Below, piece after piece: positions 5,580 through 56,230 of a stretch of DNA of 64,000 nucleotides. The stretch is from positions 3,220 through 67,219 of the forward strand of contig DAPKRR010000398.1 in the NCBI GenBank assembly GCA_031800425.1. The letters are read 5' to 3'. Made by a program: the position numbers and the translations under genes. Below the pieces are notes generated by a model. The model saw nothing but the letters and a program-made list of their open reading frames with translations. It was not told the DNA's origin and did not search any database. The stretch's first letter is position 1; every line of letters starts with the position of its first letter. The stretch is from Sandaracinaceae bacterium LLY-WYZ-13_1. GTDB lineage: Bacteria > Myxococcota_A > Polyangia > Polyangiales > Sandaracinaceae.

Positions 5580-6041
5580 ATGCCGCCTCGTCGCAAGAAG
5601 ATCGTCGCCATCAGCTCGGGTGGAGGGCACTGGATCGAGCTGCTCCGCCTGCGCCCGGCCTTCCGTGGGCACTTCGTGGTCTGGGTGACCGTCTCGGAGG
5701 CCTACCGGACGCACGTCGGCGACGCGCCGCTGCGGGTGGTGCGCGACGTGACGCGCTGGGACCGCCTGGGCCTGGTGCAGTGCGCGGCGCAGGTCTCTCG
5801 GATCCTGCTGAGCGAGCGACCGGACGTGGTGGTGAGCACCGGCGCGCTGCCCGGCTTCTTCGGGGTGGTCCTCGGCAAGCAGCTGGGGTCGCGAACGGTC
5901 TGGGTGGACAGCCTGGCCAACGTCGAGGAGCTGTCGATGAGCGGCCAGAAGGTCGGGCGCTTCGCGGACCTGTGGCTCACCCAGTGGCCCGAGCTGGCGC
6001 GCCCGGACGGCCCGCGGTACGCGGGGAGCGTGCTCGAGTGA
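5580..6041 (+). CDS. Alg14-like membrane subunit of a split glycosyltransferase (PssD/Cps14F-like)
   Basis: Sequence KIVAISSGGGHWIELLRL...VVSTGALPGFF... is Alg14-like. Its stop overlaps the next gene's start (GTGA). Confidence 0.8.
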   Translation: MPPRRKKIVAISSGGGHWIELLRLRPAFRGHFVVWVTVSEAYRTHVGDAPLRVVRDVTRWDRLGLVQCAAQVSRILLSERPDVVVSTGALPGFFGVVLGKQLGSRTVWVDSLANVEELSMSGQKVGRFADLWLTQWPELARPDGPRYAGSVLE

Positions 6042-18742: not shown

Positions 18743-20761
<2,019 letters not shown>

Positions 20762-20771
20762 TTCGGAGGGT

Positions 20772-26038
<5,267 letters not shown>

Positions 26039-26613: not shown

Positions 26614-27075
26614 ATGGCCCTGGTCGAGCTGATCTACCACAGCCGCGCCGCCGAGCCGCTCGAGGAGACGGCCATCGCGGAGCTCGCCCTCTCGGCGGCC
26701 GCCCGGAACGACGAGCTCCGCCTCACGGGCTTCCTCGCGGCGGCCGATGGCTGGTTCCTGCAGGTCCTCGAGGGTGACCGGGCCACCGTCTCCGAGCTCT
26801 ACCACCGCATCGCGGTCGATCCGCGCCACCGGGAGCTGACCCTGATGCGGGTGCGGCCGATCCACGCGCGCCGCTTCGACCGATGGAACATGGGCGTCGC
26901 CGGCGAGAGCGCGCTCGAGCGCTCGCTCCTGCTGAGGCACGGCGCCACCGAGCACTTCGATCCGGCGTCGATGAGCGCGGCGTCGGCCCACGCGCTGCTC
27001 GAGGCGCTGGCGGCGCGCGCGGCGACGGCGGATCGGCCGGGTCAGTCGGGATCGGATCCGTCGGGCGGCCGGTAG
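26614..27075 (+). CDS. Stand-alone BLUF-domain blue-light photoreceptor
   Basis: Sequence LIYHSRA...NDELRLTGFL...FLQVLEG...DPRH...WNMG matches BLUF. Tyr8, Asn32, Gln50, Trp91 and Met93 are all at canonical positions. Confidence 0.85.
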   Translation: MALVELIYHSRAAEPLEETAIAELALSAAARNDELRLTGFLAAADGWFLQVLEGDRATVSELYHRIAVDPRHRELTLMRVRPIHARRFDRWNMGVAGESALERSLLLRHGATEHFDPASMSAASAHALLEALAARAATADRPGQSGSDPSGGR

Positions 27076-31535: not shown

Positions 31536-32399
31536 TCAAAGCTCGGGCGCCTCCTGCAGCAAGCCGTTGCGAAGGAAGATGTTGACCAGCTTCTTGCTGG
31601 CCTTGCGTCGGTGCTCGGCGGTCGCCGGATGCGCCAGCGCCATCTTGCGCACCTGGTAGGGCTTGTCGAGCCCGGCGTCCTTGTACATCGTCGGGTTGTA
31701 GAAGTCGTTCCAGCTCGACTTCACGTACTGGCCCAGCCAGTCGGAGAAGCCCTTCTTCGTCTCCTCGTCCCACTTCGGGAGCCAGTGCTCGGCCAGCTCG
31801 GTGAGGTGGCGGCGGCCGAAGCCCAGGTGCCGCGACTCGTCGCGGTGATGCACCCAGTTGATCCGCTTGACGATCGGCTCGATCGCGTCGTCGAGCATCA
31901 TCTTCACGTTGTAGTAATCGCCCAGCTCCTCGACGACGAGCACCTTGCAGAAGAAGGCCAGCTCCTCCTCGCCCTTGGAGTACTCGCGCTCGAGCGCGAC
32001 CTTCTTCTCCGGGTACACCTTCCCGACGTACTTGTTCAGGAAGATCCCGAACATGATCATGTGCTTGTTCTCTTCGTCGATGAAGTGGTGCAGGTACTCG
32101 GTGGCCTCGGGCGAGACGCGCTTGCTGTAGAGGCGGTCGCTCAGCCCGGCGACCAACGGCCGCTCCCCCTGCAGGGTCAAGCTGAAGAAGTTCGCGACCT
32201 CGTAGAGGCTCAGTCGCTTGCGCTGCTCCTCGTTCAGCTCGTCCCAGAGCTCGGTCCCGTGAATCGAGATCAGCTCGGGGGGCATGCAGTAGCGATCGGC
32301 GCTGAGCTCCTCGGGCCAGTCGAACTCCGTGTAGACGTTCCAGAACTGGTCGCGGGACTGTTCGGTCAGTCGGACGGCGAGCTCGTTGGCGGTCGACAT
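31536..32399 (-). CDS. Ferritin-like diiron oxygenase (AurF / p-aminobenzoate N-oxygenase-like family)
   Basis: Carboxylate/His ligand pattern: E (LYEVANFF), ExxH (EENKH), E (VVEELGD) and H...ExxH (HHRDESRH). GGAG lies 13 nt upstream of the ATG. Confidence 0.75.
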   Translation of the reverse strand: MSTANELAVRLTEQSRDQFWNVYTEFDWPEELSADRYCMPPELISIHGTELWDELNEEQRKRLSLYEVANFFSLTLQGERPLVAGLSDRLYSKRVSPEATEYLHHFIDEENKHMIMFGIFLNKYVGKVYPEKKVALEREYSKGEEELAFFCKVLVVEELGDYYNVKMMLDDAIEPIVKRINWVHHRDESRHLGFGRRHLTELAEHWLPKWDEETKKGFSDWLGQYVKSSWNDFYNPTMYKDAGLDKPYQVRKMALAHPATAEHRRKASKKLVNIFLRNGLLQEAPEL

Positions 32400-41689: not shown

Positions 41690-42442
41690 TCAGAACGTCC
41701 AGCCGGACGCGCTCGGGTCCACCGTGTAGCAGAGCGACCCGTCGGCGCCGCAGCGCTCGCTCTGGATGTCGCTCGGGGCCAGGACGACCGCGAGCACCAC
41801 GATGGTCACCGCCACCGCCGCCGCCGCCGCGCCGACGACGATCCACGTCACCGGTTGCTCGTACCACTCGGGATCCGGCGGGTTGAGCATCTCCTCGGGG
41901 AGCGGCTCCAGGGTCACGTCGAGGGCGTCGATCTGGCCGGGCACCGCCGTCACCGTCCGGATCCGCTCGTGATGGCGCGGCGAGGTGACCCGCAGGGAGT
42001 GCTCGCCTTCGATGAGCTCGAGCTCGAGCGGGGTGTTCCCGCGGAAGGTCCCGTCCACGAACACCCGCGCCTCGTCCGGGGTCGAGCGCACGGTGAGCAC
42101 CATCGCCAGCGCGATCATGTCCACCGGCAGGCGCGCCTCCTGGCCCGGCTCGATCTCCACCACCTCGTCGAACTGCGTGTAGCCCGGTCGTCGTACGCGC
42201 ACCGTGTGGGAGCCGGGCGCCAGCTCGATCGGGTCGACCGGCGTGTAGCCCACCGTCTCCTCGTCGACGACGACCTCGGCGTTCTCGATCGAGGCCTCGA
42301 TGACGAGCGTGCCGGGGGTGTCGGGGGGGATCCGCCGCCGTCGCCGGCGCCGCCGTCGCTGCGCGTCCGCGTCGAAGGCGGCGCCCAGCACCACCAAGCT
42401 CAGCAGCACGGAGACCGCCACCGTCCAGCCACGACCGATCAC
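41690..42442 (-). CDS. PEGA domain-containing membrane protein
   Basis: It has a signal peptide, two PEGA-like modules (LAPGSHTVRVRRPGY; LIEGEHSLRVTSPRH) and a C-terminal TM. Confidence 0.8.
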   Translation of the reverse strand: MIGRGWTVAVSVLLSLVVLGAAFDADAQRRRRRRRRRIPPDTPGTLVIEASIENAEVVVDEETVGYTPVDPIELAPGSHTVRVRRPGYTQFDEVVEIEPGQEARLPVDMIALAMVLTVRSTPDEARVFVDGTFRGNTPLELELIEGEHSLRVTSPRHHERIRTVTAVPGQIDALDVTLEPLPEEMLNPPDPEWYEQPVTWIVVGAAAAAVAVTIVVLAVVLAPSDIQSERCGADGSLCYTVDPSASGWTF

Positions 42443-42475: not shown

Positions 42476-43330
42476 TCAATCGTCGGCCGCCGGTTCGCTC
42501 CCCCGTCGCAGCCGCCGGTAGGCCTCGAGCCGCCGCCGGAACCGGGCCGGCCGGCGCGCCACCTCGACCGCCCGCACGAACGCGTCCTCCGCCTCCTCCT
42601 CGCGCCCGAGCTCGTGGAGCAGGATCCCGCGCCCCACGTGGGCCGGGGCGAAGGTGGGCACCCGCTCGACCACCGCGTCGTAGATCGCGAGCGCCTCGTC
42701 GAAGCGCTCGGCGTTGATCAGCAGCGCGGCGAGGCCGAGCCGGAGCCCGGTGTGCGCGGGGTGCCGGGCGATCCCCTCGCGGAACGCGCGCTCGGCGCCG
42801 GCGCGGTCTTCGGCGTGGTAGCGGGCGAGCCCGAGCGCGTTCCAGGTCTCGGCGTGGGCCGGATCGAGCGCCACCGACCGGGCCAGGGGCTCCACCGCGG
42901 CCTCGGGACGCCCCCAGCGGACCAGCCGCGTGCCGAGGACGCGGTGCGCGTAGGCGGACTCGGGGGCGACCTCCACCGCGTGCCGGTAGGCGAGCAGGGC
43001 CTCGTCGTAGCGACGCTGCAGCTCCCAGGTGTGCCCGATCAGCACCCGCGGGAGCGCGGCGTGGCGTCGCAGGTGGGCGACCCGGGTGAAGGCGTCACGG
43101 GCGCGCGGGTAGCGCTCGGCGGCCATGTGAGCGCGGCCGAGGGCGAGCCAGGCGCGCGGGTCCTCCGGGTCCGCCTCGGTGGCCTGCGCGAAGGCGCGCG
43201 CCGCGCCCTCGAAGTCCCCCCGGCTCATGGCGCGGCGTCCCTGCGCCATCGGCCCGCCGCAGCCCGCCGCGAGCAGCGCGAGGAGCGCGGCGCCCGCCAG
43301 CGCACCCCAGCGCCGACCTCCTTGACCCAC
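42476..43330 (-). CDS. TPR-repeat lipoprotein
   Basis: The lipobox is LLAAGC, followed by at least 6 TPR-like repeats (AWLALGRAHMAAERYPRARDAF and others). Confidence 0.75.
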   Translation of the reverse strand: MGQGGRRWGALAGAALLALLAAGCGGPMAQGRRAMSRGDFEGAARAFAQATEADPEDPRAWLALGRAHMAAERYPRARDAFTRVAHLRRHAALPRVLIGHTWELQRRYDEALLAYRHAVEVAPESAYAHRVLGTRLVRWGRPEAAVEPLARSVALDPAHAETWNALGLARYHAEDRAGAERAFREGIARHPAHTGLRLGLAALLINAERFDEALAIYDAVVERVPTFAPAHVGRGILLHELGREEEAEDAFVRAVEVARRPARFRRRLEAYRRLRRGSEPAADD

Positions 43331-43348
43331 CGCGCGCCGGAACGCACG

Positions 43349-43633
43349 ATGCGCCGGATGGACCGGGCACTGATCGAGACGATCCTCGCGGGCACCTCCG
43401 GGCTGGAGAAGAGCGACACGGGGTTCCAGGCCGCGGACGAGCATCGCGCGTCGATTTACCTCGGCGGGAGCGCGTCGACCACCGTCCTGTCGGACCTGGT
43501 CCGCATCCAGCTTCACGAGACGCACCTCGAGGCCGAGGCCAAAGACCGCACGCTGCACTTCGTGACCTACGATCCGATCCTCGGCCTGCAGGTCCGGCGT
43601 CCCCGCGAGGACGGGCCGCGCACCGGCTTCTAG
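43349..43633 (+). CDS. Small protein (94 aa), function unknown, immediately upstream of the sigma54 activator
   Basis: Third-codon positions are strongly G/C-biased. It ends 12 nt before the activator gene. ATG 43358 is an alternative start. Confidence 0.5.
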   Translation: MRRMDRALIETILAGTSGLEKSDTGFQAADEHRASIYLGGSASTTVLSDLVRIQLHETHLEAEAKDRTLHFVTYDPILGLQVRRPREDGPRTGF

Positions 43634-43645
43634 ACGAGGGGCGCG

Positions 43646-45046
43646 ATGGCCGCCCGCATCCTGGTCTGCGACGACGAGGCGGGGCTCCGCGAGATGCTGA
43701 GCGTCCTGCTCCGGCGGGCCGGCTACGAGGTCGCCACGACGGAGACCGAGGCCGCGGCGGTCACCCGGCTGCGGGACGACGGCCCCTTCGACGCCGTCGT
43801 CACCGATCTCGCGCTGCCGGACGGCACCGGCATGGACGTCCTGGGCGCCGCCCGGGCCGAGGACGAGTCCGTCCAGGTGATCGTGATCACCGCCTACGGG
43901 GGGACCGAGGAGGCGGTCGAGGCGATGCGGCTCGGCGCCTACGACTTCATCCAGAAGCCGTTCCGGAACACCGAGCTGTTGGCCCTGCTCGAGAAGGCGC
44001 TCGAGAAGCGTCAGATCGTCGGCGAGAACCGGCTGCTCCGCGAGACGCTCGACGGCTCGTTCAAGCTCGGGCGCCTGCTCGGCAAGAGCCCCGCGATGCG
44101 CCGCGTGATGGACCTGATCCGCCGGATCGCCGACGCCCGGACGAGCGTGCTCCTGACCGGCGAGAGCGGCACGGGCAAGGAGATGGTCGCCCGCGCGATT
44201 CACGAGGAGGGCGAGCGGGCGGACGGACCCTTCGTCGTGGTCAACTGCGGCGCCCTCCCCGAGGCCCTGATGGAGAGCGAGCTCTTCGGGCACGAGAAGG
44301 GCGCGTTCACCGGCGCCATCCAGCGGAGCGAGGGCCTGGTGCGCGCGGCGAGCGGCGGGACGCTCTTCCTCGACGAGATCGGCGAGCTGCCGCCCGAGCT
44401 GCAGGTCAAGCTCCTGCGGGTCCTGCAGGAGCGCAAGGTGCGCCCGGTCGGCAGCCAGAAGGAGGTCGAGGTGGACCTGCGGGTCGTCGCCGCCACCAAC
44501 CGCGATCTGGAGGCGGAGGTGGAGGCGGGCCGCTTCCGCCAGGATCTCTTCTACCGGCTGAACGTCATCCGCCTACACCTGCCGCCGCTCCGCGACCGGA
44601 CCGAGGACATCCCGCTGTTGGCCGAGCACTTCGTGGAGAAGCACGCCGCGATGGCGGGCAAGCCGGTGTCCCTGTCGGCCGAGGCGCGGCGCTGGCTCGT
44701 CTCGCAGCGCTATCCGGGCAACATCCGCGAGCTCGAGAACGTCATCGAGCGCGCCGTGACCCTGGCGACCGGGTCCGAGATCGTCCTCGACGACCTGCCG
44801 GACGAGGGCGAGCCGCGGCGCGCGGACCCGGGGGACGTGGACCTGACCGACGGCTTCGACGTCGACGAGTACCTCGGATCGATCGAGCGCGAGCTCATCC
44901 TCCGCGCCCTCGAGCGCACCGGCGGCGTCCGCACCGAGGCGGCCAAGCTCCTCGGCGTCTCGTTCCGCTCGTTCCGCTACCGGCTCGCCAAGTACGGGCT
45001 GGGTGAGGCGGGTGACGAAATCCGTCAGCGCTCCGACGGCGACTGA
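43646..45046 (+). CDS. Sigma54-dependent response regulator (NtrC/PilR family bacterial enhancer-binding protein)
   Basis: The REC domain has DD...D ([10 protein letters not shown]). The AAA+ domain has GESGTGKE and the GAFTGA loop (EKGAFTGA). A C-terminal Fis-type HTH is present. Confidence 0.92.
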
Positions 45047-45058
45047 CGATTTCCGTCA
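45013..45058. promoter_or_regulatory. Pair of palindromic TGACG-N5-CGTCA sites (candidate enhancer/UAS for the adjacent sigma54 activator)
   Basis: The sites are TGACGAAATCCGTCA (45013-45027) and TGACGATTTCCGTCA (45044-45058), with centres 31 bp apart. The second contains the activator's stop codon. It lies about 50 bp upstream of the -24 GG. Confidence 0.55.
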
Positions 45059-45099
45059 CCGCGGACGTCGACAGGCACGCCGGACGGCCGCGCGCGGGC

Positions 45100-45115
45100 A
45101 GGCGCACCGGTTGCA
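45100..45115 (+). promoter_or_regulatory. Candidate sigma54 (-24/-12) promoter upstream of the pilin-like gene 45135
   Basis: AGGCGCAccggTTGCA has the correct GG-N10-GC spacing and a perfect TTGCA. The ATG is only 20 nt downstream, which implies a leader of about 9 nt. Confidence 0.5.
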
Positions 45116-45134
45116 TGGTAGGATCCGGGCACCC

Positions 45135-45701
45135 ATGGCACCGCTGGCACGTCGCATCCGCCGCGCGCGGACCGGAGGGTACACCCTCCTCGAGCTGATG
45201 ATCGTGGTGGTGCTGATCGGTGTCCTCTCGGCGATCGCGATTCCCTCGTTCCAGAGCTACCTGTACCGCTCGCGGACCGCCGAGGCGGTGACCTTCCTGG
45301 GCGAGATCCGCCAGCGCCAGGAGTCCTACCGCGCCGAGTTCGGGCAGTACTGCTCCGTCTCCGGCGCCCCGGGCGCCAGCCCCGACTCGGGCGCGTGGGC
45401 GCCCGGAAGCCTGCCCGCCTCCGGCACCTCGGTCGGCTGGCCGGGCGCGCCCGGGGCGTGGTCGCAGCTCGGCGCGGTGCCGGACGGTCCCGTGCGCTTC
45501 CAGTACCGCACGACCGCGGGTCCCCCGGGGACGACCCCCGGAATCACGGGCTACGACGGCAGCGACTTCTGGTTCGTCGCCCAGGCCCGCGCCGACCTCG
45601 ACGGCGACGGCGAGGTGATGATCATCGAGGCCTACTCGGCGAGCAACCACCTCTACTTCGCCGACGGCGCGATGGCCCCGCTCAGCTCGGGCTACGAGTA
45701 G
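45135..45701 (+). CDS. Type IV pilin-like protein (prepilin-type N-terminal cleavage/methylation domain)
   Basis: The leader is MAPLARRIRRARTGG, then YTLLELMIVVVLIGVLSAIAIP, giving Gly at -1 and Glu at +5. Confidence 0.75.
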   Translation: MAPLARRIRRARTGGYTLLELMIVVVLIGVLSAIAIPSFQSYLYRSRTAEAVTFLGEIRQRQESYRAEFGQYCSVSGAPGASPDSGAWAPGSLPASGTSVGWPGAPGAWSQLGAVPDGPVRFQYRTTAGPPGTTPGITGYDGSDFWFVAQARADLDGDGEVMIIEAYSASNHLYFADGAMAPLSSGYE

Positions 45702-45759
45702 GCACGGCGGCGGCGAACCGCCGGCCGCGCGCGGACACCTCTGGTGGACGACTCCATCC

Positions 45760-45805
45760 TGACGAGAATCGTCACCGCCTCCGGCTCGGTCGACGATTCT
45801 CGTCA
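45760..45805. promoter_or_regulatory. Second pair of TGACG-N5-CGTCA-type palindromes (candidate UAS for the pilA sigma54 promoter)
   Basis: The sites are TGACGAGAATCGTCA (45760-45774) and CGACGATTCTCGTCA (45791-45805), with centres 31 bp apart. The pair lies about 51 bp upstream of the -24 GG. Confidence 0.6.
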
Positions 45806-45847
45806 CCGCGCCGGCACGGATCGATCGTTCAGCCCTGCGGAGAGCAC

Positions 45848-45863
45848 ATGGCACGCGCTATGC
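45848..45863 (+). promoter_or_regulatory. Sigma54 (-24/-12) promoter upstream of pilA
   Basis: TGGCACGcgctATGCA compared with the consensus TGGCACG-N4-TTGCW. The GG-to-GC spacing is exact. It lies 86 nt upstream of ATG 45949. Confidence 0.75.
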
Positions 45864-45948
45864 AATTCACTGGGCCGAGTCAAAAGAACCCGGGCCCCGC
45901 CGTTCGGTCGGCGGAGCACCCCCCGCGAGACCACTGGAGCAAGAACCC

Positions 45949-46524
45949 ATGATGCAGAAGCTGTTGAAGAAGAAGGAAGGCTTCACGCTCATCGAGCTGA
46001 TGATCGTCGTGGCCATCATCGGCATCCTCGCCGCGATCGCCATCCCCGCGTTCATCGGCTACATCCGCCGTTCGAAGACCTCGGAGGCGGCCGCGAACCT
46101 GAAGAACATGTTCACCGCCGCGTCGGGTTACTACTCCGACGAGGCGTGGGGCAGCCGGATGGTGATGGCCGCCGGCACCTCCGTGGCCTCGACCGGCTGC
46201 GTCGTCTCGCCCGCGGCGAGCAGCAACGCCGGCATGGAGAGCGACGCCAAGACCGTGCTCGACTGGAACATGGAGCCGGAGTCGTTCCGTGACCTCGGCT
46301 TCTCCATCGCCGACCCGATCTACTACAGCTACCACATCGCCGGATCGGACGGGATGTGCGGTCACAGCTCCGCCGAGGCCGGGATGGGCCTCTACTCGTT
46401 CTTCGCCAACGGCGACCTCGACGGGGACATGAACACGAGCCTCTTCGAGATCCAGGCGGGTCCGAGCACGGAGAACGTGCTGATGCGCACCCCCGGCATC
46501 TACCGCGAGAACGAGCTCGAGTAG
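45949..46524 (+). CDS. pilA: Type IVa major pilin-like protein
   Basis: The leader is [11 protein letters not shown], then [28 protein letters not shown] lies 13 nt upstream. A strong sigma54 promoter lies upstream. Confidence 0.85.
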
Positions 46525-46551
46525 CCACCAACCCATCGCCTCGGCCCCCTC

Positions 46552-46587
46552 CGCGCCCCGTTGCCACGTGCAGCGGGGCGCGCTTTC
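46552..46587 (+). terminator. Hairpin terminator candidate downstream of pilA
   Basis: A 9-bp GC stem (CGCGCCCCG / CGGGGCGCG, 46552-46560 and 46574-46582) is followed by CTTTCG. It lies 28 nt after the TAG stop. Confidence 0.5.
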
Positions 46588-46621
46588 GTGAAGCGGGCAC
46601 TGGCGGTAGAACAGCGACCGC

Positions 46622-47515
46622 ATGGCCTCCCGGTGGCGCAGCATCACGGCGCTCACGCTCGGCCTCGGGCTGCTGCTCGGGCTCACCGACCAGCTGCGCG
46701 CCGCCGCCCATCGGCGCTATGAGAGCGGACAGCGGTACGAGGACGTCTACTACCTGCCGCCCGCCGAATGGCTCCCGGTGATGAGCCTCGGCTGGGACGA
46801 GGCGCTCGCCGATCTCATCTGGATGCGCGGGTTGGTCTACTTCGGGGAGGAGCTGCAGCAGGGCGGCAACGTCCAGCACGTCCTCGAGTACGCCCGCGCC
46901 GCCACCGCGCTCGACCCCGACTTCCGCGCGGTCTACCGGTGGGTGGGGACGGCGGCGATCTACCGCCCCGTGGAGACCCGCCCCGAGCACGTGGAGGAGG
47001 CGGTCGAGTTCATGCAGCGCGGGGCGGCGCGCTTCCCCGAGGACGGGGAGCTGGCGTGGGACATCGGGGCGGCGCTCGTGTTCGAGCTCGTCCCGCTGCT
47101 GGACGATCCCGAGGCGCGAGACGACGCCCGCGAGCGGGGCATGCCGTGGCTGCTGTCGGCGTCCCGGCTCGGCGCGGCGCCGGAGTGGATGAGCCTGACC
47201 AACTCCACGCTCCTCGCCCGGCTCGGACGCACGGAGCAGGCGGCCCGTCACCTCGAGGAGATGTACCTCGCGACCCGCGACCCACGGACCCGGGAGCGGA
47301 TCGCGGAGCGCATCCGGCGCCTGCGCGACCGCACCGAGGCGGAGGCCTTCATGCAGTCGGTCCGGGAGCACGAACGGGCGCGCCGCGAGCACTTCCCCTA
47401 CCTGACCCCCGAGCTCTTCCTCTTCGTCGGGCCCCGCCCACCCGTCGACCTGGACGGCCCGATCCGCGACGGCTTGCCGGCAGCCCTCTCCACGCCCCCC
47501 GCGTCGCCGCGCTGA
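46622..47515 (+). CDS. Signal-anchored/secreted helical protein, function unknown
   Basis: It has an N-terminal hydrophobic segment and helical repeat-like content. GC3 is high. It ends 2 nt before the next gene. Confidence 0.6.
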   Translation: MASRWRSITALTLGLGLLLGLTDQLRAAAHRRYESGQRYEDVYYLPPAEWLPVMSLGWDEALADLIWMRGLVYFGEELQQGGNVQHVLEYARAATALDPDFRAVYRWVGTAAIYRPVETRPEHVEEAVEFMQRGAARFPEDGELAWDIGAALVFELVPLLDDPEARDDARERGMPWLLSASRLGAAPEWMSLTNSTLLARLGRTEQAARHLEEMYLATRDPRTRERIAERIRRLRDRTEAEAFMQSVREHERARREHFPYLTPELFLFVGPRPPVDLDGPIRDGLPAALSTPPASPR

Positions 47516-47517
47516 CC

Positions 47518-49227
47518 ATGCGAGCTCCCGCACACGGGCTCGGCCGTCCCTGGGCTCTCGCCCTCGGGCTCGCGCTCCTGGTCGTCGGGAGCACCGGCCA
47601 CCGCTTCGCCAACGACTTCGTCTTCGACGACGAGCACCTCATCCGGGACGGTGGCGTGATCCACGATCCGTCCCGCCTCCCGGAGGTCTGGACGCATCAC
47701 ACGATGTACGCGTCGGCCGCGGACCCGGGCCGAGTGCAGTCGGTCGACACCTACCGACCGCTGACGCTCACGCTCTTCTTCCTGGACGCCCAGCTCTCGG
47801 GACACGAGCCGTGGGCGTACCACGCGACCAACCTCCTGCTGCACCTGGGCTGCGTCTGGCTCACCTTCGTCGTCGCCATCCGCCTGCTCGGGCGCTCGGC
47901 CCGATGGGCCTCCTTCTACGGCGCGGCGGTCTTCGCCGTGCACCCGTGGGCGGTCGAAGCGCACGTCTGGATCAACGGCCGCTCGGACCCTCTCGCCCTG
48001 CTGCTCGGGCTCGGCGGCTTCTGGCTGCTGCTCGGCGCCGAGGTGCACGGGGCGCGCGCCGCGGCGCGCCGCGTGCTCGCCGCCGCCCTGGTGCTCCTCG
48101 GGCTCCTCTCGAAGGAGACGCTGCTCACCGTCCTGCCCGCCATGGCGCTCGCGCCCTCCCCCGCCGGTACCGACCTCGCCTGGGCCGCGCGGCTGCGCGG
48201 CCGGGTGCCGCCCCTGGCCGGGGCGGCGCTCGCCTACCTCGGCGCGAGAAGCTGGGTCCTGTCGGGCCTCGCGATGCACCGGGACGCCGCGATGCTCGCG
48301 GAGGCCGCCTACCGGCTCCCCGCGCTGATGGTCGAGGGGATCCGCCACGCCCTCGCGCCGCCGCTGCCCTACCTGAGGAGCCTGCGCGACGAGTACGCGA
48401 ACCTCGCGCCGTGGCAGGTGGCGCTCTTCGTCGCGATCCTCACGGCGGCGGCGGCGCTCGCGTTCTGGGGACGGCGCCGGTGGCCGGTCGCCTCCTGGAG
48501 CGCGCTCTGGTTCTTCCCTCCCCTCGTGCCGGTCGCGATCATCACGACCGTGCTCTGGCCCGGTTTCGGCCGCTACCTCTACCTGCCGCTCTGCGGCCTC
48601 GCGTTCGCCCTCGCGGCGGTCGCCCAGCGTGTCCGCGCGCGGGTGGAGCGTCCTCGATGGCTCGTCGCGGCCGGCGCGAGTCACGTGGCGGTGCTGGCGG
48701 TCCTGGCGGCCCTCTTCACCCGGGACTTCCGCCACAGCGACGCGCTCTACGGCGCCGCGATGCGGGCGCGGCCGGACGCCGCCATGCCCCACGGGTGGTC
48801 GGGGCTCAGCCTCCGGGACGCCGGGGAGCACCGCGCGGCCGCCCGGGAGCTCCTGCGCGCCGCGGAGCTCGACCCGAGCACGCACCGGTACCTGGTCCAC
48901 GCCGGCCGCGCGCTCCTCCAGAGCGGCGACCGCGCCGGCGCGGCGCGCGTCGCGGCGCGAGGCATCCGCCGCTTCCACGGCCGGCCGGAGGAGGCGTCGT
49001 ACCGGTTGCTCGCGGTCAACGCGATGAGCGAACGCGACCCGTCGCGCGCCGTCGCGCACCTCGACCGCTGCCTCGAGGTCTGGCCCGGTCGGACGGAGTG
49101 CCGACGAGCGCTGGAGCGCCTGCTCCACGACGCCGACGACGCCGAGGCCCACCGCCGGGCGGCGGAGCGCCGGATGCGGCGACGGCCCGATCGCGCCGAG
49201 GTGCTCCGAGCGCTCCTCGAGCGTTGA
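47518..49227 (+). CDS. GT-C-like multi-pass membrane protein with C-terminal TPR repeats (TMTC/PMT_2-like putative glycosyltransferase)
   Basis: The first-loop acidic motif is FVFDDEHLI and a YRPLT motif follows. It has about 10 TM helices. The C-terminal TPR region includes AARELLRAAELDPSTHRY... Confidence 0.55.
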   Translation: MRAPAHGLGRPWALALGLALLVVGSTGHRFANDFVFDDEHLIRDGGVIHDPSRLPEVWTHHTMYASAADPGRVQSVDTYRPLTLTLFFLDAQLSGHEPWAYHATNLLLHLGCVWLTFVVAIRLLGRSARWASFYGAAVFAVHPWAVEAHVWINGRSDPLALLLGLGGFWLLLGAEVHGARAAARRVLAAALVLLGLLSKETLLTVLPAMALAPSPAGTDLAWAARLRGRVPPLAGAALAYLGARSWVLSGLAMHRDAAMLAEAAYRLPALMVEGIRHALAPPLPYLRSLRDEYANLAPWQVALFVAILTAAAALAFWGRRRWPVASWSALWFFPPLVPVAIITTVLWPGFGRYLYLPLCGLAFALAAVAQRVRARVERPRWLVAAGASHVAVLAVLAALFTRDFRHSDALYGAAMRARPDAAMPHGWSGLSLRDAGEHRAAARELLRAAELDPSTHRYLVHAGRALLQSGDRAGAARVAARGIRRFHGRPEEASYRLLAVNAMSERDPSRAVAHLDRCLEVWPGRTECRRALERLLHDADDAEAHRRAAERRMRRRPDRAEVLRALLER

Positions 49228-49234
49228 CGCCGGC

Positions 49235-52200
49235 TCAGCCGTCGTCGCCCGGTGGGGCGCCCCGCTCCGGCACGATGGCGGTCGGCGACGGGCCGGCCGG
49301 CTCGACCGAGAGATCCCCGAGGTCGATCTCGAGCTCCTCGGCGGCCGTCGCGAGGCGGCGCTCGGAGGAGGGGATGCCGCGGGTCGCCCGCAGCGTCGTC
49401 CGCAGGACCCGGCGCGCCTCGTCGGGGCGTCCTCCTTCGTGGTGGAGCCGCGCCAGCGCGACCGCGGACCGGCTGTGGCTCGGGTACTCGCGCAGGGCGC
49501 GCCGCAGCATCACGAGCGCGCACCCGCCGTTGCCGCCCTGGACGCAGCGCGCGCCCAGGTCGTGCGCTCGGAAGGCCGCCTCCCTGCGCGACCGCACCGC
49601 CAGCGTGCCCAGCCTGGTCGCCGCGTCCCGATCCCCCGCCGCGAACGCGCACTCCTGCGCCCGCAACGCCACCTCCCCGACCTGGCGGGCCAGCGACTCG
49701 ATCGGCTCGGGGCGCTGCTGCCAGGCGGAGCACGGCTGCTCGAGCTCGGCTCGCACGAAGGCGCGGAGCGGCCGATCCCGCGGGGCGTCGACCCGCGTCG
49801 CCACCGCGAGCGCGTCGCGCAAGGCGTTCGGTGTGCCGATCTGGAGGCCGGCTCGCAGGAGCGGAGCGGCCGAGGTGGGCACCCCGTCCCGCTCCCGGGC
49901 GACGGAGAGCGCTCGCCGGGGCATCCCCTCGGCGACCCGCAGCGCGTCGGCCCGGAGCGCGGCCATCGGGAGGTGCGCGCGGTCCCAGGCCTCCAGCGCG
50001 CCCCGCACGTCGCCCCGCGCCTCGGCCAACGCCCCTTCGATCAGGGCGCGCTCCGCCGGCTCGAGCCCAGCGTGGCCCAGCGTCCGCTCGACGCGGTCGA
50101 GCGCGAAGGGGCGGGCCCACGTGGCCTCGACGCGGCTCAGCAGGGCTCGGACGCGCCCCTGTCCTTCCCAGCCGTCCACGAAGGCGGGGGACCACCACGG
50201 GACGTCGCGGAGCGCCCGGTCGAGGTCGCGTTCGGTGACCCGGGCGGCCCCGGAGGTGGCGGCGAGCTGGAACTCGAGGAGCGGGCGATCGTCCACGATC
50301 TCCTCCGCTCGTCCGCCGAGCGCCTCCGCCGCCTCCGTGTCGAGCTCGAGCGCCCGCGCCAGCCGCTCGCGTCCGGCCAGCCCGAACGGGTCGAGGAAGC
50401 GGGCGATCCGCCGGAGCCGCGCGTCCATCGTCGAGTCCCAGGCCGGCCGGCGGCGGCTCGCGACGAAGACGATGCTCGACGTCTCCGCGATGTAGCCCTG
50501 CACGTGAGGGAAGACCGACCGCAGGGTCCGCACGACCGATCGCACGTGCGGCAGACGGATCCGGAAGAGGTTCAGCCACAGGGAGAAGACGCCGTCGTCG
50601 GCGAGCGCGCGCTCGACCTCGCGGAAGAACTCGATGGTGTAGAGGGCGCTCGAGCCGGCCAGCCAGGGGTGGGACGGCTGTGAGACCACCGCCTGGTAGG
50701 TGCCGGCGTCGGCCAGGCTCAACCGGTTGCGCGCGTCGTCGACGATCAGGCGGGCGCGCGGGTCGTCGAGGGGAAACGGGACCTCGCGCGCCTCGTACAT
50801 GAGCCGCGCTCCCTCGACGATCGCCTCGTCGAGCTCCACCACGTCGACCGCGTCGAACCCGCCGGCCAGGACGATGCGGGCGCTGTGCCCCCCGCCGAGC
50901 CCGATCACCATGGCGCGCTCGGTCTCGCCGGCGAAGAGCGTCGGCATCGAGCCGAGCAGCGCCAGCTCGGGGCCGAAGCCAGGCTCGCGGGCGCCGAACC
51001 CGGACTCCGGGCGGGCGTCGTGGTAGAGCCCGAGGCCGGCGCTCCGACGGCGCACCGTGACCGTCGCGCTCCGGCCCTCCCGGAGGAAGGCCACGTTCTC
51101 TCGCCAGTCCGGCCCGGGGCCCTCGATCACCGCGCGCATCGGGTGCTCCGGCGCCTGGACGAGGAACGGGAGGTGGACGCTCGGCTCGAGCAGGAGCACG
51201 AGCACGCCCGCGACGAGCGGGCCGACCAGCGCGAGGGCTCGGCGCACCGGACGGGCGGGCTCTTCCGCGGAGCGCAGCGCCAGCCCGGCGATGATCAGGT
51301 GCACGAAGACGACCCCGAGGAGCGCGGCCTCGACGCCGATGCTCGGGACGAGGACGAAGCCGGCGAGCAGCGAGCCGACCAGGCCCCCCAGCGTGTTCGC
51401 GGCGAGCAGCTGCCCGCTCCCCCGTGCGGCGTTCGGATCGGCCCGCTCCGCGAGGTTCCACGCGAGCGGGAGACCCATCCCGAGCACCAGCGCGAGCGGG
51501 AGCAGCAGGGTGGCCGCGAAGGCGAGGATGGTCCCCGCGCTGTGCGGCGTGAAGGACACCTCACCCAGCCAGAGCGGCAGCACCCGCACGAGATGCGGCA
51601 AGGCGACCATCGCGAGCACGGTCAGCGCCGCGGCGCCGACTTGGGTGAACGCGAGCATCCGGGCCGGGCCGGCGCGACCGGCGGCGAGTCGCCGGGCGAT
51701 GGCCCCCCCCACCGCGATGCCGAGCAGATAGCACGCGAGCATGCTGGCGAACGCCTGGGTCGTGCCGTGAACGACGGTGCGGAGCAACCGCGTCCACAGG
51801 ACCTCGCCGGCGAGGGCGCTCAACCCGGTCCCGGCGGCGAGCGTCGTCGCTAGCAGCATCCCCCCGCGGACCGGGGCCTCCTCGCCCGCGGTCCGCGCCT
51901 CGACACCCCGTTCGTCGAGGCCCTCCGCCTCGGCGCCTTCCTCGGGCCGCTTCGCCGACGACACCTCCGGCTCGGCCGCGACCACGACGAAGCCGCGGTG
52001 GCTCAGGTAGACGGTCACCGCCGCGAGCAAGCTCGCGACGGCCGCCACCCACATCGACACCTTGGCCCCGAAGCTGGGAACGAGGACGAGGCCCGTCAGG
52101 CCGGCGCCCAGCACCGCACCGAGGGTGTTCGAGACGTAGAGCCCCGTGACGCCCTTGGCCCACCGCCCCCGGTCGGTGGCGGCGAGCGCCACCACCGGGA

Positions 52201-52624
52201 GCGTGGCGCCGAGGAGCAAGGTCGGAGGGACGAGGATCCCCAGCGACAGCACGAGTCGCCACGCGGAGAGCGCCTCCACGCTCGCGTCCGCGCCCACCGC
52301 GGCGTAGGCGCCCCCGGCCAGCGGGATGATCCACGGCGAGATGCCGGCGTAGACGGCGACCACCGTCTCGAGAATCGCGTACACGCGCCCCGGTCGCTCG
52401 ATGCGGTCGGACTGGCGCGAGGCGATCCAGCTGCCCGCTCCCAGACCGACGAAGAACGCGGCCAGCACCGTGGCGACGGCGAGGTCGCCCACCCCGAACA
52501 CGCGGTGGAGCATGCGTGTCCAGCTCGTCTCGTAGGCCAGGGCGGCGAAGCCCGACAGGACCAGCGCGACGTGCAGGGCGGCTCGACGGCCAGGGGCGCT
52601 CACGGGGCGGAGAGAATCCTCCAT
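49235..52624 (-). CDS. Fused MFS-like membrane domain / spermidine synthase-like methyltransferase-fold domain / TPR-like C-terminal region
   Basis: Two blocks of TM helices precede a SpeE-like core (VIGLGGGHSARIVL...VDVVELD...VDDARN...SQPSHPW). A C-terminal region of about 400 aa is helical. Confidence 0.75.
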   Translation of the reverse strand: MEDSLRPVSAPGRRAALHVALVLSGFAALAYETSWTRMLHRVFGVGDLAVATVLAAFFVGLGAGSWIASRQSDRIERPGRVYAILETVVAVYAGISPWIIPLAGGAYAAVGADASVEALSAWRLVLSLGILVPPTLLLGATLPVVALAATDRGRWAKGVTGLYVSNTLGAVLGAGLTGLVLVPSFGAKVSMWVAAVASLLAAVTVYLSHRGFVVVAAEPEVSSAKRPEEGAEAEGLDERGVEARTAGEEAPVRGGMLLATTLAAGTGLSALAGEVLWTRLLRTVVHGTTQAFASMLACYLLGIAVGGAIARRLAAGRAGPARMLAFTQVGAAALTVLAMVALPHLVRVLPLWLGEVSFTPHSAGTILAFAATLLLPLALVLGMGLPLAWNLAERADPNAARGSGQLLAANTLGGLVGSLLAGFVLVPSIGVEAALLGVVFVHLIIAGLALRSAEEPARPVRRALALVGPLVAGVLVLLLEPSVHLPFLVQAPEHPMRAVIEGPGPDWRENVAFLREGRSATVTVRRRSAGLGLYHDARPESGFGAREPGFGPELALLGSMPTLFAGETERAMVIGLGGGHSARIVLAGGFDAVDVVELDEAIVEGARLMYEAREVPFPLDDPRARLIVDDARNRLSLADAGTYQAVVSQPSHPWLAGSSALYTIEFFREVERALADDGVFSLWLNLFRIRLPHVRSVVRTLRSVFPHVQGYIAETSSIVFVASRRRPAWDSTMDARLRRIARFLDPFGLAGRERLARALELDTEAAEALGGRAEEIVDDRPLLEFQLAATSGAARVTERDLDRALRDVPWWSPAFVDGWEGQGRVRALLSRVEATWARPFALDRVERTLGHAGLEPAERALIEGALAEARGDVRGALEAWDRAHLPMAALRADALRVAEGMPRRALSVARERDGVPTSAAPLLRAGLQIGTPNALRDALAVATRVDAPRDRPLRAFVRAELEQPCSAWQQRPEPIESLARQVGEVALRAQECAFAAGDRDAATRLGTLAVRSRREAAFRAHDLGARCVQGGNGGCALVMLRRALREYPSHSRSAVALARLHHEGGRPDEARRVLRTTLRATRGIPSSERRLATAAEELEIDLGDLSVEPAGPSPTAIVPERGAPPGDDG

Positions 52625-52653
52625 CGCGGGGGGTGGGGTCAAACCGCCGACGC

Positions 52654-53313
52654 TCACTCCGCGCGGTCTCGGACGTAGAGGATGCCGAAGGGCTCGAGGG
52701 CGCCCTCCTCGGTGGCGCGGACGCGGCGCTCGAAGACGGAGCGCTCGCCGTCGCCGTCCAGGTCGCCCTCGGCGCGCAGCGTCAACAGGTAGGTGCCCTC
52801 GGGGCTGCGCAGGCCGCACCCGGAGGCGGTGGGCTCGAAGGTGTAGCTGTAGCGGACCGGGATCGGCGGCTGGAAGCCGAGCGCGCGCCAGGTGTCGTGC
52901 CCCGGCGTGTCCTCGTCGGTGAAGTCGACGCGCTCGGGGTCCCGGGTCGGCATCCGCGGGGTCGGGCCGGCGGTCGGAGGCAGGCAGCGCGTGCGAGGGC
53001 CCTCCTCCGCCGGCTCCGCGTCGGGCGAAGCGTCGTCCCCCTCGCCTTCGTCGCTCCGCTCCGCACGGTCGTCGGCCTCGTCGCCCTCTTCGTCGTCGGC
53101 CTCCGGCTCGTGGGTCGCGGCGAAGTAGGCGGCCGAGCGCTGGTAGAGCAGCTCGAGGTGCTGCGCCGCCTCGCTCGTCTTGCTCGTCCGGAGCTCCCGC
53201 ACGAAGGTCGGGATGAAGACGGCCAGGACGATGCCCACCACGCAGATCACGGCGGCCGCTTCGACCATCGAGAGGCCGGCGAGTCGGGGGCGGGGATGCC
53301 GCGGGCGGGGCAT
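52654..53313 (-). CDS. Pseudopilin / type IV pilin-like protein with divergent N-terminal motif
   Basis: The leader is MPRPRHPRPRLAG, then LSMVEAAAVICVVGIVLAVFIP, giving Gly at -1 and Glu at +5. It shares the C-terminal GDLDGDG motif with the two pilins at 45135 and 45949. Confidence 0.6.
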   Translation of the reverse strand: MPRPRHPRPRLAGLSMVEAAAVICVVGIVLAVFIPTFVRELRTSKTSEAAQHLELLYQRSAAYFAATHEPEADDEEGDEADDRAERSDEGEGDDASPDAEPAEEGPRTRCLPPTAGPTPRMPTRDPERVDFTDEDTPGHDTWRALGFQPPIPVRYSYTFEPTASGCGLRSPEGTYLLTLRAEGDLDGDGERSVFERRVRATEEGALEPFGILYVRDRAE

Positions 53314-53343
53314 CGGCGCAGTGTGACGCGCCGGCGGAGGGGA

Positions 53344-56145
<2,802 letters not shown>

Positions 56146-56200
56146 CGCGCTCCTCGCGTCTCCTTCATCGGGCCCCACGCCCCGAGCTCGAGGCGGCGGG

Positions 56201-56230
56201 ACTGTACCCAAGCTGCACAAGCCCGGTCAA
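56201..56230 (-). promoter_or_regulatory. Sigma70-like promoter candidate for the PEGA kinase operon
   Basis: On the minus strand the sequence reads TTGACC-N18-TACAGT, about 55 nt upstream of GTG 56145. Confidence 0.3.

Follow-up and report, generated by a model that had tools for sequence, protein, structure and literature searches.

Paired TGACG-W5-CGTCA palindromes and putative sigma-54 promoters precede two tandem type IV pilin genes in Sandaracinaceae

The DNA analyzed here, a stretch of 64,000 nt referred to as the window, comes from a metagenome-assembled genome (MAG) of the Sandaracinaceae and has a GC content of 72.7% (73% for the genome). It carries two tandem type IV pilin genes downstream of a gene for a PilR-like activator of sigma-54, and each pilin gene is preceded by a module consisting of two 15-bp palindromes (dyads) and a -24/-12 element. 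An original prediction, made from the letters alone, held that the activator binds the four palindromes and drives both pilins. Our analysis supports this reading, and both modules are probably NtrC/PilR-type enhancer pairs joined to sigma-54 promoters and driven by the product of the adjacent activator gene. In orthologous Sandaracinaceae loci, both pilins are again preceded by the same dyad pairs and by GG-N10-GC elements, the dyads are strongly enriched upstream of pilin genes, and similar pairs precede pilin genes in unrelated metagenome contigs. The elements in question are as follows.

43646-45046, forward strand: PilR-like sigma-54 activator with a receiver (REC) domain, an AAA+ domain bearing GAFTGA and a Fis-type helix-turn-helix (HTH)
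45013-45027: module 1 distal dyad, TGACGAAATCCGTCA, within the last codons of the activator
45044-45058: module 1 proximal dyad, TGACGATTTCCGTCA, whose TGA is the activator stop codon (45044-45046)
45100-45115, forward strand: putative promoter 1, a weak -24/-12 element, AGGCGCAccggTTGCA, with its GG 50 bp from the proximal dyad centre
45135-45701, forward strand: pilin 1, 188 aa
45760-45774: module 2 distal dyad, TGACGAGAATCGTCA
45791-45805: module 2 proximal dyad, CGACGATTCTCGTCA
45849-45864, forward strand: putative promoter 2, a strong -24/-12 element, TGGCACGcgctATGCA, with its GG 52 bp from the proximal dyad centre
45949-46524, forward strand: pilin 2, 191 aa

All four palindromes were read directly in the sequence where the original prediction had placed them, with a centre-to-centre spacing of 31 bp in both modules, and the activator does end on a TGA that forms the first three bases of the second palindrome. 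The exact pattern TGACG-N5-CGTCA occurs three times in the window, against an expectation of 0.05 (independent, identically distributed bases) to 0.085 (first-order Markov) per 64 kb, and none of 200 simulations contained three or more sites. The exact palindromes are not spread over the window, since all three lie inside the modules, far above chance. Pairs of dyads with at most one mismatch each, 25-40 bp apart, were found twice and in none of 200 Markov simulations. Five further 1-mismatch matches stand alone in the window, a number in line with the roughly 3.6-3.8 expected by chance. The modules had been described as duplicated; two modules are indeed present, but a recent duplication is not borne out, as their likeness is restricted to the dyads and the promoter elements, and both are old. 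A 1-mismatch site of the form CGACGATCC[A/G]CGTCA recurs at position 41836 of the window, inside a gene for a PEGA-domain protein, and in three related loci (L082 1862, L088 2006, L087 2044); it appears to be conserved coding sequence and not regulatory.

The putative promoters were compared with the sigma-54 consensus TGGCACG-N4-TTGCW. Promoter 2 differs from it at one position and is the sole match of such quality in the window. It lies one base downstream of the position originally given (45848-45863), and its GG is 52 bp, not 51 bp, from the centre of the proximal palindrome; the 50 bp given for module 1 is correct. Transcription from promoter 2 is predicted to start at about position 45875, so that the pilin 2 leader would measure about 75 nt and carry GGAG ahead of the ATG. 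Each of the ten related two-pilin loci has an orthologous promoter with 1-3 mismatches. Inspection by eye revealed no conserved IHF-like site between enhancer and promoter.

The activator displays the three hallmarks of the NtrC family, namely a REC domain (Response_reg, 2.3e-24), a sigma-54-interacting AAA+ domain (Sigma54_activat, 2e-73; AAA_lid_14, 1.9e-25) and a C-terminal Fis-type HTH (HTH_8, 1.3e-14, residues 412-450). Its translation shows a complete REC, with the phospho-acceptor D54 together with D9, D10, T82 and K104, as well as a Walker A motif (GESGTGKE) and a GAFTGA loop, and the nearest PDB sequences are those of NtrC1, NtrC4 and ZraR. The protein thus has all domains and key residues of a phosphorylatable bacterial enhancer-binding protein (EBP). 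Homologues with 64-75% identity are plentiful in Sandaracinaceae, including the cultured Sandaracinus amylolyticus, and many of them are labelled PilR (NtrC family) by JGI, such automatic names being the sole support for PilR orthology. The activator scores under every NCBIfam equivalog cutoff and matches no NCBIfam PilR equivalog. As in the PilR group (KEGG K02667), the gene adjoins and precedes a type IV pilin gene with a sigma-54 promoter, an arrangement seen in 14 loci. The adjacent PilS kinase of that group is missing, and so is a binding site like that of Pseudomonas aeruginosa (TGT-N11-ACA with GTCT elements, in place of which TGACG-W5-CGTCA is found). No histidine kinase domain was detected in the window open reading frames (ORFs) scanned or in 11 related loci, which bears out the original remark that no cognate histidine kinase is adjacent; the activator is an orphan response regulator. 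The regions 5' of the activator and of the small ORF that precedes it are free of dyads and give no hint of autoregulation.

Both downstream ORFs are type IV prepilins by their domain matches, in agreement with the tandem pilins originally proposed. Each has the marks of a class III signal peptide, that is, a short basic leader, Gly at -1, a hydrophobic N-terminus and Glu at +5, and each is supported by a TIGR02532 match. Pilin 1 has the leader MAPLARRIRRARTGG and the junction ...RTGG/YTLLELMIVV, with the mature N-terminus YTLLELM, and it matches N_methyl (3.5e-6), ComP_DUS (weakly) and typeIV_PilA_Myxo (6.5e-14, below cutoff). In pilin 2 the junction reads ...KKEG/FTLIELM, giving the mature N-terminus FTLIELM, and the matches are N_methyl (1.8e-9) and typeIV_PilA_Myxo (1.9e-21, below cutoff). 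The likeness to pilins of known structure is confined to the N-terminal helix in both proteins, the matches of pilin 2 being to geopilin and to M. xanthus PilA (8tj2). Pilin 2 is probably the major pilin. At the start codon of pilin 1, two overlapping TGGCAC motifs (caTGGCACcgcTGGCACgtcgc, 45138-45160) were noticed, one of them a 3-mismatch sigma-54-like match (45145-45160); they are probably coincidental.

Orthologous loci, designated by L numbers, were gathered through homologous proteins of the activator and the contigs that encode them. A scan of genome contigs with the activator reached a best identity of 57% among the matches listed, with L001-L003 as the syntenic ones. The order small ORF, activator, pilin 1, pilin 2 and a protein of about 295 aa, often followed by a PMT_2/TPR protein, is kept in 11 loci. 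In these 11 Sandaracinaceae loci, dyads with at most one mismatch number 30 in the 3.9 kb of pilin upstream intervals (7.7/kb) and 15 in the 164 kb outside them (0.09/kb), an enrichment of about 85-fold.

The position of the dyads relative to the genes is likewise conserved. In nine of the 11 loci, including L081, L082, L083, L084/85, L087, L088 and L089 (1 mismatch), the activator stop codon supplies the TGA of a dyad, and such a dyad recurs as TGACAATTTTTGTCA in L001, a Polyangiales MAG whose activator is 57% identical. The partner dyad of module 1 lies 31 bp upstream in four loci, and in L083, L082 and L088 the equivalent of the distal dyad is placed at -33 relative to the stop codon. Ten loci have a module 2 pair ahead of pilin 2, with orthologous pairs in L082, L083, L084, L086, L088, L090, L091, L114 and L130. 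In five loci the stop codon of pilin 1 is the TGA of the distal module 2 dyad (L087 6507, L089 6505, L090 6495, L091 6496, L114 3681). The stop codons that double as the TGA of a dyad mean that coding and regulatory sequence overlap, and that this overlap is conserved.

The locus of S. amylolyticus (L081) is arranged differently. The partner of the stop-codon dyad is located 33 bp downstream instead of upstream, and the sigma-54-like element has moved along with it, 49 bp from the new proximal site. In this species (DSM 53668) the equivalent sites occupy L081 5905-5952, and the putative promoter is at 5993. Three pilin genes are present (noted for L081 7126-7219); pilin 2 starts only 4 bp after pilin 1, so that no module 2 is present there.

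A matrix built from 34 sites reads T-G-A-C-G, five mostly A/T positions and C-G-T-C-A, hence the consensus TGACG-W5-CGTCA. The invariance of its core is partly circular, as the core served to find the sites. The spacer played no part in site selection, and its positions are A/T in 24-30 of the 34 sites in a genome of 73% GC, which constitutes independent evidence of constraint. The spacing within pairs is 31-34 bp in the 15 pairs of Sandaracinaceae type and 30-34 bp over all 20 pairs; this is about three helical turns, so that the two dyads face the same side of the DNA. The distances from the proximal dyad centre to the -24 GG fall into the classes 39-41, 49-52, 60-62 and 84 bp with nothing between, and give a Rayleigh R of 0.81 at a period of 10.5 bp (fit 10.5-11 bp) over loci that are related and non-independent. 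This periodicity suggests a helical phasing of the dyads relative to the promoter. As in NtrC-type upstream activating sequences, at least two dyad-symmetric sites on the same helical face are found upstream of the -24 element.

Palindromes of this kind could also act as RNA or DNA hairpins, with a terminating, processing or stabilizing role, and not as protein sites. In the window, each module 2 dyad is the exact reverse complement of the other, including the spacer (AGAAT/ATTCT); the two fold into a long hairpin with a dG of -31.3 kcal/mol (z -4.3) and lie just 3' of pilin 1, while module 1 has a z of -2.5. The complementarity of the spacers is not conserved in the orthologues, however, and what is conserved in the stems is the sequence itself, with no compensatory change seen. 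Module 1 falls within a coding region, there is no T-run and no terminator was called, and no Rfam family is matched, a sub-threshold match to mir-122 being noise. The lack of a terminator, of conserved spacer pairing and of compensatory change led us to reject the hairpin or terminator reading, which is hardly tenable.

In the enhancer-promoter reading, each 15-bp dyad would bind one dimer of the adjacent PilR-like regulator through the C-terminal Fis-type HTH. An unlinked kinase would phosphorylate D54, upon which the dimers would assemble into an AAA+ ring that contacts the sigma-54 holoenzyme, closed at the -24/-12 element some 40-60 bp downstream, and uses ATP to open the promoter. Module 1 would drive pilin 1 from a weak promoter with a very short leader, while module 2, with its near-consensus promoter, would drive pilin 2 and be the probable source of the major pilin.

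The same pairs were sought in metagenome contigs with the bare pattern of two dyads 15-19 bp apart. Most of the matches listed are tandem repeats in coding sequence or chance occurrences, and only the association with pilins is informative. A dyad pair lies just 5' of a type IV pilin gene in at least eight contigs (8 of the 80 contigs among the matches listed: L099, L113, L114, L130, L146, L148, L158, L166), where the background rate is 0.008 pilin motifs per 700 nt. The pair is followed by GG-N10-GC in all six pilin-linked contigs checked, with 3 mismatches to the consensus in L113 and L148. These contigs span 48-71% GC, and the presence of such pairs before their putative sigma-54 pilin promoters suggests that the dyad motif is in use well outside Sandaracinaceae. 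In L158 the order EBP (46% identity), pair (1867-1911), sigma-54 promoter and pilin is repeated, and L166 has three tandem 32-bp units (reverse strand, 5-100).

Several observations weigh against the assignment of both modules to the adjacent activator and sigma-54. The related loci share ancestry, and the counts of conserved distances are thus non-independent observations. The rpoN gene is not in the window, and pilin 3 of S. amylolyticus has a good sigma-54 promoter (CGGCACGaccaTTGCT), yet the 650 bp before it contain no dyads that can be recognised. Promoter 1 is a 3-mismatch match to the consensus with GG and GC correctly spaced; 45 such matches occur in the window, with 68 expected. Because matches of this grade are common by chance, promoter 1 is not significant on the consensus alone and gains support only from its position and conservation. 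A proper GG is missing at its position in L088 and L090. Its predicted start at about 45125-45127 would leave pilin 1 a leader of about 9 nt that lacks a Shine-Dalgarno sequence, and the predicted leader is absent in L082 and L091.

These features of promoter 1, together with the absence of a terminator between activator and pilin 1, would fit an arrangement in which only module 2 is a working unit. Pilin 1 would then be made by read-through from the activator's own promoter, and the module 1 dyads would serve as extra distal sites for promoter 2 or in read-through feedback. By contrast, GG-N10-GC with TTGC is retained after module 1 in nine of the 11 related loci, at phased distances of 39-51 bp from the dyad and with the geometry seen in module 2, and the -12 region is conserved as TTGCRTG. 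Moreover, the pair that is shifted downstream in S. amylolyticus has kept its 49 bp to the element. We consider it unlikely that module 2 is the only working unit.

The remaining points against the activator concern the protein that reads the dyads. The pilin-linked pairs of L099 and L146 have no adjoining EBP gene, and in L143 a pair precedes unrelated ORFs that do not encode pilins, so that other proteins could read TGACG/CGTCA pairs. The recognition helix of the HTH carries an F-to-L exchange in L087, L089 and L001, which have variant half-sites, and L158 has the L with canonical dyads; the tracking is loose, and the covariation of recognition helix and half-site is only suggestive. The dyads might accordingly be operators of a different DNA-binding protein, for example a repressor or a second pilin regulator. 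Yet dyads accompany the activator gene in every Sandaracinaceae locus, so closely that a dyad can include its stop codon, and a sigma-54 element always follows the dyads at a phased distance. Dyads of the form 5-N5-5 paired over three turns are typical of NtrC-family enhancers (PMC11841059), and the arrangement of L158 reproduces the association with an EBP at 46% protein identity. Operators of a different protein are therefore a very improbable explanation, and enhancer pairs bound by the adjacent activator are preferred.

Three further features of the pilin locus complete the description.

43349-43633, forward strand: conserved small ORF of 94 aa, counted from the first ATG (91 aa in the NCBI call), 12 bp 5' of the activator
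45702-45730, forward strand: GC-rich hairpin directly 3' of the pilin 1 stop, with a CGGCGG-cgaa-CCGCCG core
46622-47515, forward strand: 297-aa protein of unassigned function with a weak TPR match, syntenic and always 3' of the pilins

The 94-aa ORF that the original prediction placed before the activator is confirmed. It has tblastn matches in eight Sandaracinaceae loci, mostly directly 5' of the activator, and belongs to a family of 28 members, all hypothetical and all from Sandaracinaceae-like sources, with an invariant C-terminal RTGF. An AlphaFold2 model (mean confidence, pLDDT, 86) displays one helix and a small seven-stranded beta structure. No PDB match to this fold was obtained at E<=0.001, the weak matches being WYL, Sm and CooT-like barrels, and the sequence has no Pfam or NCBIfam match. 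The product is a possible partner for the orphan regulator.

The hairpin 3' of pilin 1 folds with a dG of -29.6 kcal/mol (z -2.15). It is a possible weak terminator or 3' stabilizer; with this z value and without a T-run, read-through into pilin 2 stays possible. A terminator scan of positions 43200-46800 found none.

Upstream of the activator lie the small ORF and genes for TPR, PEGA and enoyl-CoA hydratase proteins. Downstream of the pilins, the 297-aa protein (46622-47515) and a membrane protein of about 570 aa (47512-49227, forward strand) form a conserved block that also includes a very large protein with a spermidine-synthase domain (49235-54439, reverse strand). Orthologues of the membrane protein match PMT_2 (GT-C glycosyltransferase-like) and TPR, and the block may be connected with the modification of pilins. 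No pilus-machinery gene was detected among the window ORFs scanned. Elsewhere in the window we observed a protein combining AMP-binding, luciferase-like monooxygenase and PP-binding domains (95-2662), GlgE and a TreS-maltokinase-like pair of the alpha-glucan pathway (18743-24128), a BLUF photoreceptor (26614-27075), an AurF-like N-oxygenase (31536-32399) and a Ser/Thr kinase with PEGA domains (53344-56220).

For a myxobacterial family that has been little studied, the analysis provides a testable operator motif and a map of the promoters predicted to control its type IV pilins; a cultured member of the family, S. amylolyticus, bears the same sites. The motif could allow genome-wide prediction of PilR regulons in Polyangia and possibly in other phyla. 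It also raises the questions of what input replaces PilS and whether the two pilins differ in expression. The general understanding of sigma-54 enhancers is unchanged by the finding.

The arrangement resembles a classical NtrC enhancer. At the glnAp2 promoter of E. coli, two strong NtrC dyads about 32 bp apart (three turns) lie on one face of the DNA and nucleate the active oligomer; they are centred near -140 and -108 and have a TGCACC-type half-site. In the window, by comparison, the predicted dyad centres are near -75 and -106 (about -65 or -85 in some relatives), and the half-site differs.

Among pilin regulators, PilR, with PilS, controls a sigma-54 promoter of pilA in P. aeruginosa, Myxococcus xanthus and Geobacter sulfurreducens (PMC6058289, PMC6211767, PMC2725144). 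The window shares with these systems an NtrC-family regulator gene immediately 5' of the pilin and a -24/-12 promoter, and the top NCBIfam match of both pilins is the myxobacterial PilA, below cutoff. It differs from them in that an adjacent PilS is lacking, both here and in the 11 related loci, and in that two pilin paralogues are present, each with its own putative enhancer and promoter. The dyad is also unlike the cited P. aeruginosa PilR site, TGT-N11-ACA with GTCT elements (PMC8035640, PMC6058289); PilR homologues are known to differ in the sites they bind (PMC8035640). In the literature searched, we found no defined PilR site of M. xanthus and no paper that links the TGACG/CGTCA dyad to a sigma-54 activator.

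A close parallel in architecture is NmpR of M. xanthus, which recognizes GCGCA-N5-TGCGC dyads arranged in pairs (S1, S2) before sigma-54 promoters, the proximal site being critical, and whose enhancer and promoter elements have also been found inside an upstream ORF, pilS (PMC11841059). Paired 5-N5-5 dyads are common to both systems, with edge-to-edge distances of mostly 14-15 bp for NmpR (PMC11841059) and 16-19 bp here. The half-site is a different one, and NmpR targets genes of oxygen utilization and pilR, whereas the sites in the window precede pilins.

Tentatively, and with more doubt than confidence, the TGACG-W5-CGTCA pairs may represent an element of a broad PilR clade that extends beyond Sandaracinaceae and is unlike the Pseudomonas site of 1994, with an orphan PilR running two pilin paralogues from separate and unequal enhancer-promoters and perhaps receiving its input through a lineage-restricted 91-aa beta-barrel protein. 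Set beside the known systems, the locus holds a real, conserved and functionally coherent module that is most likely an ordinary sigma-54 gene switch, and its new details are modest: the motif, the orphan regulator and the conserved sharing of stop codons with dyads.

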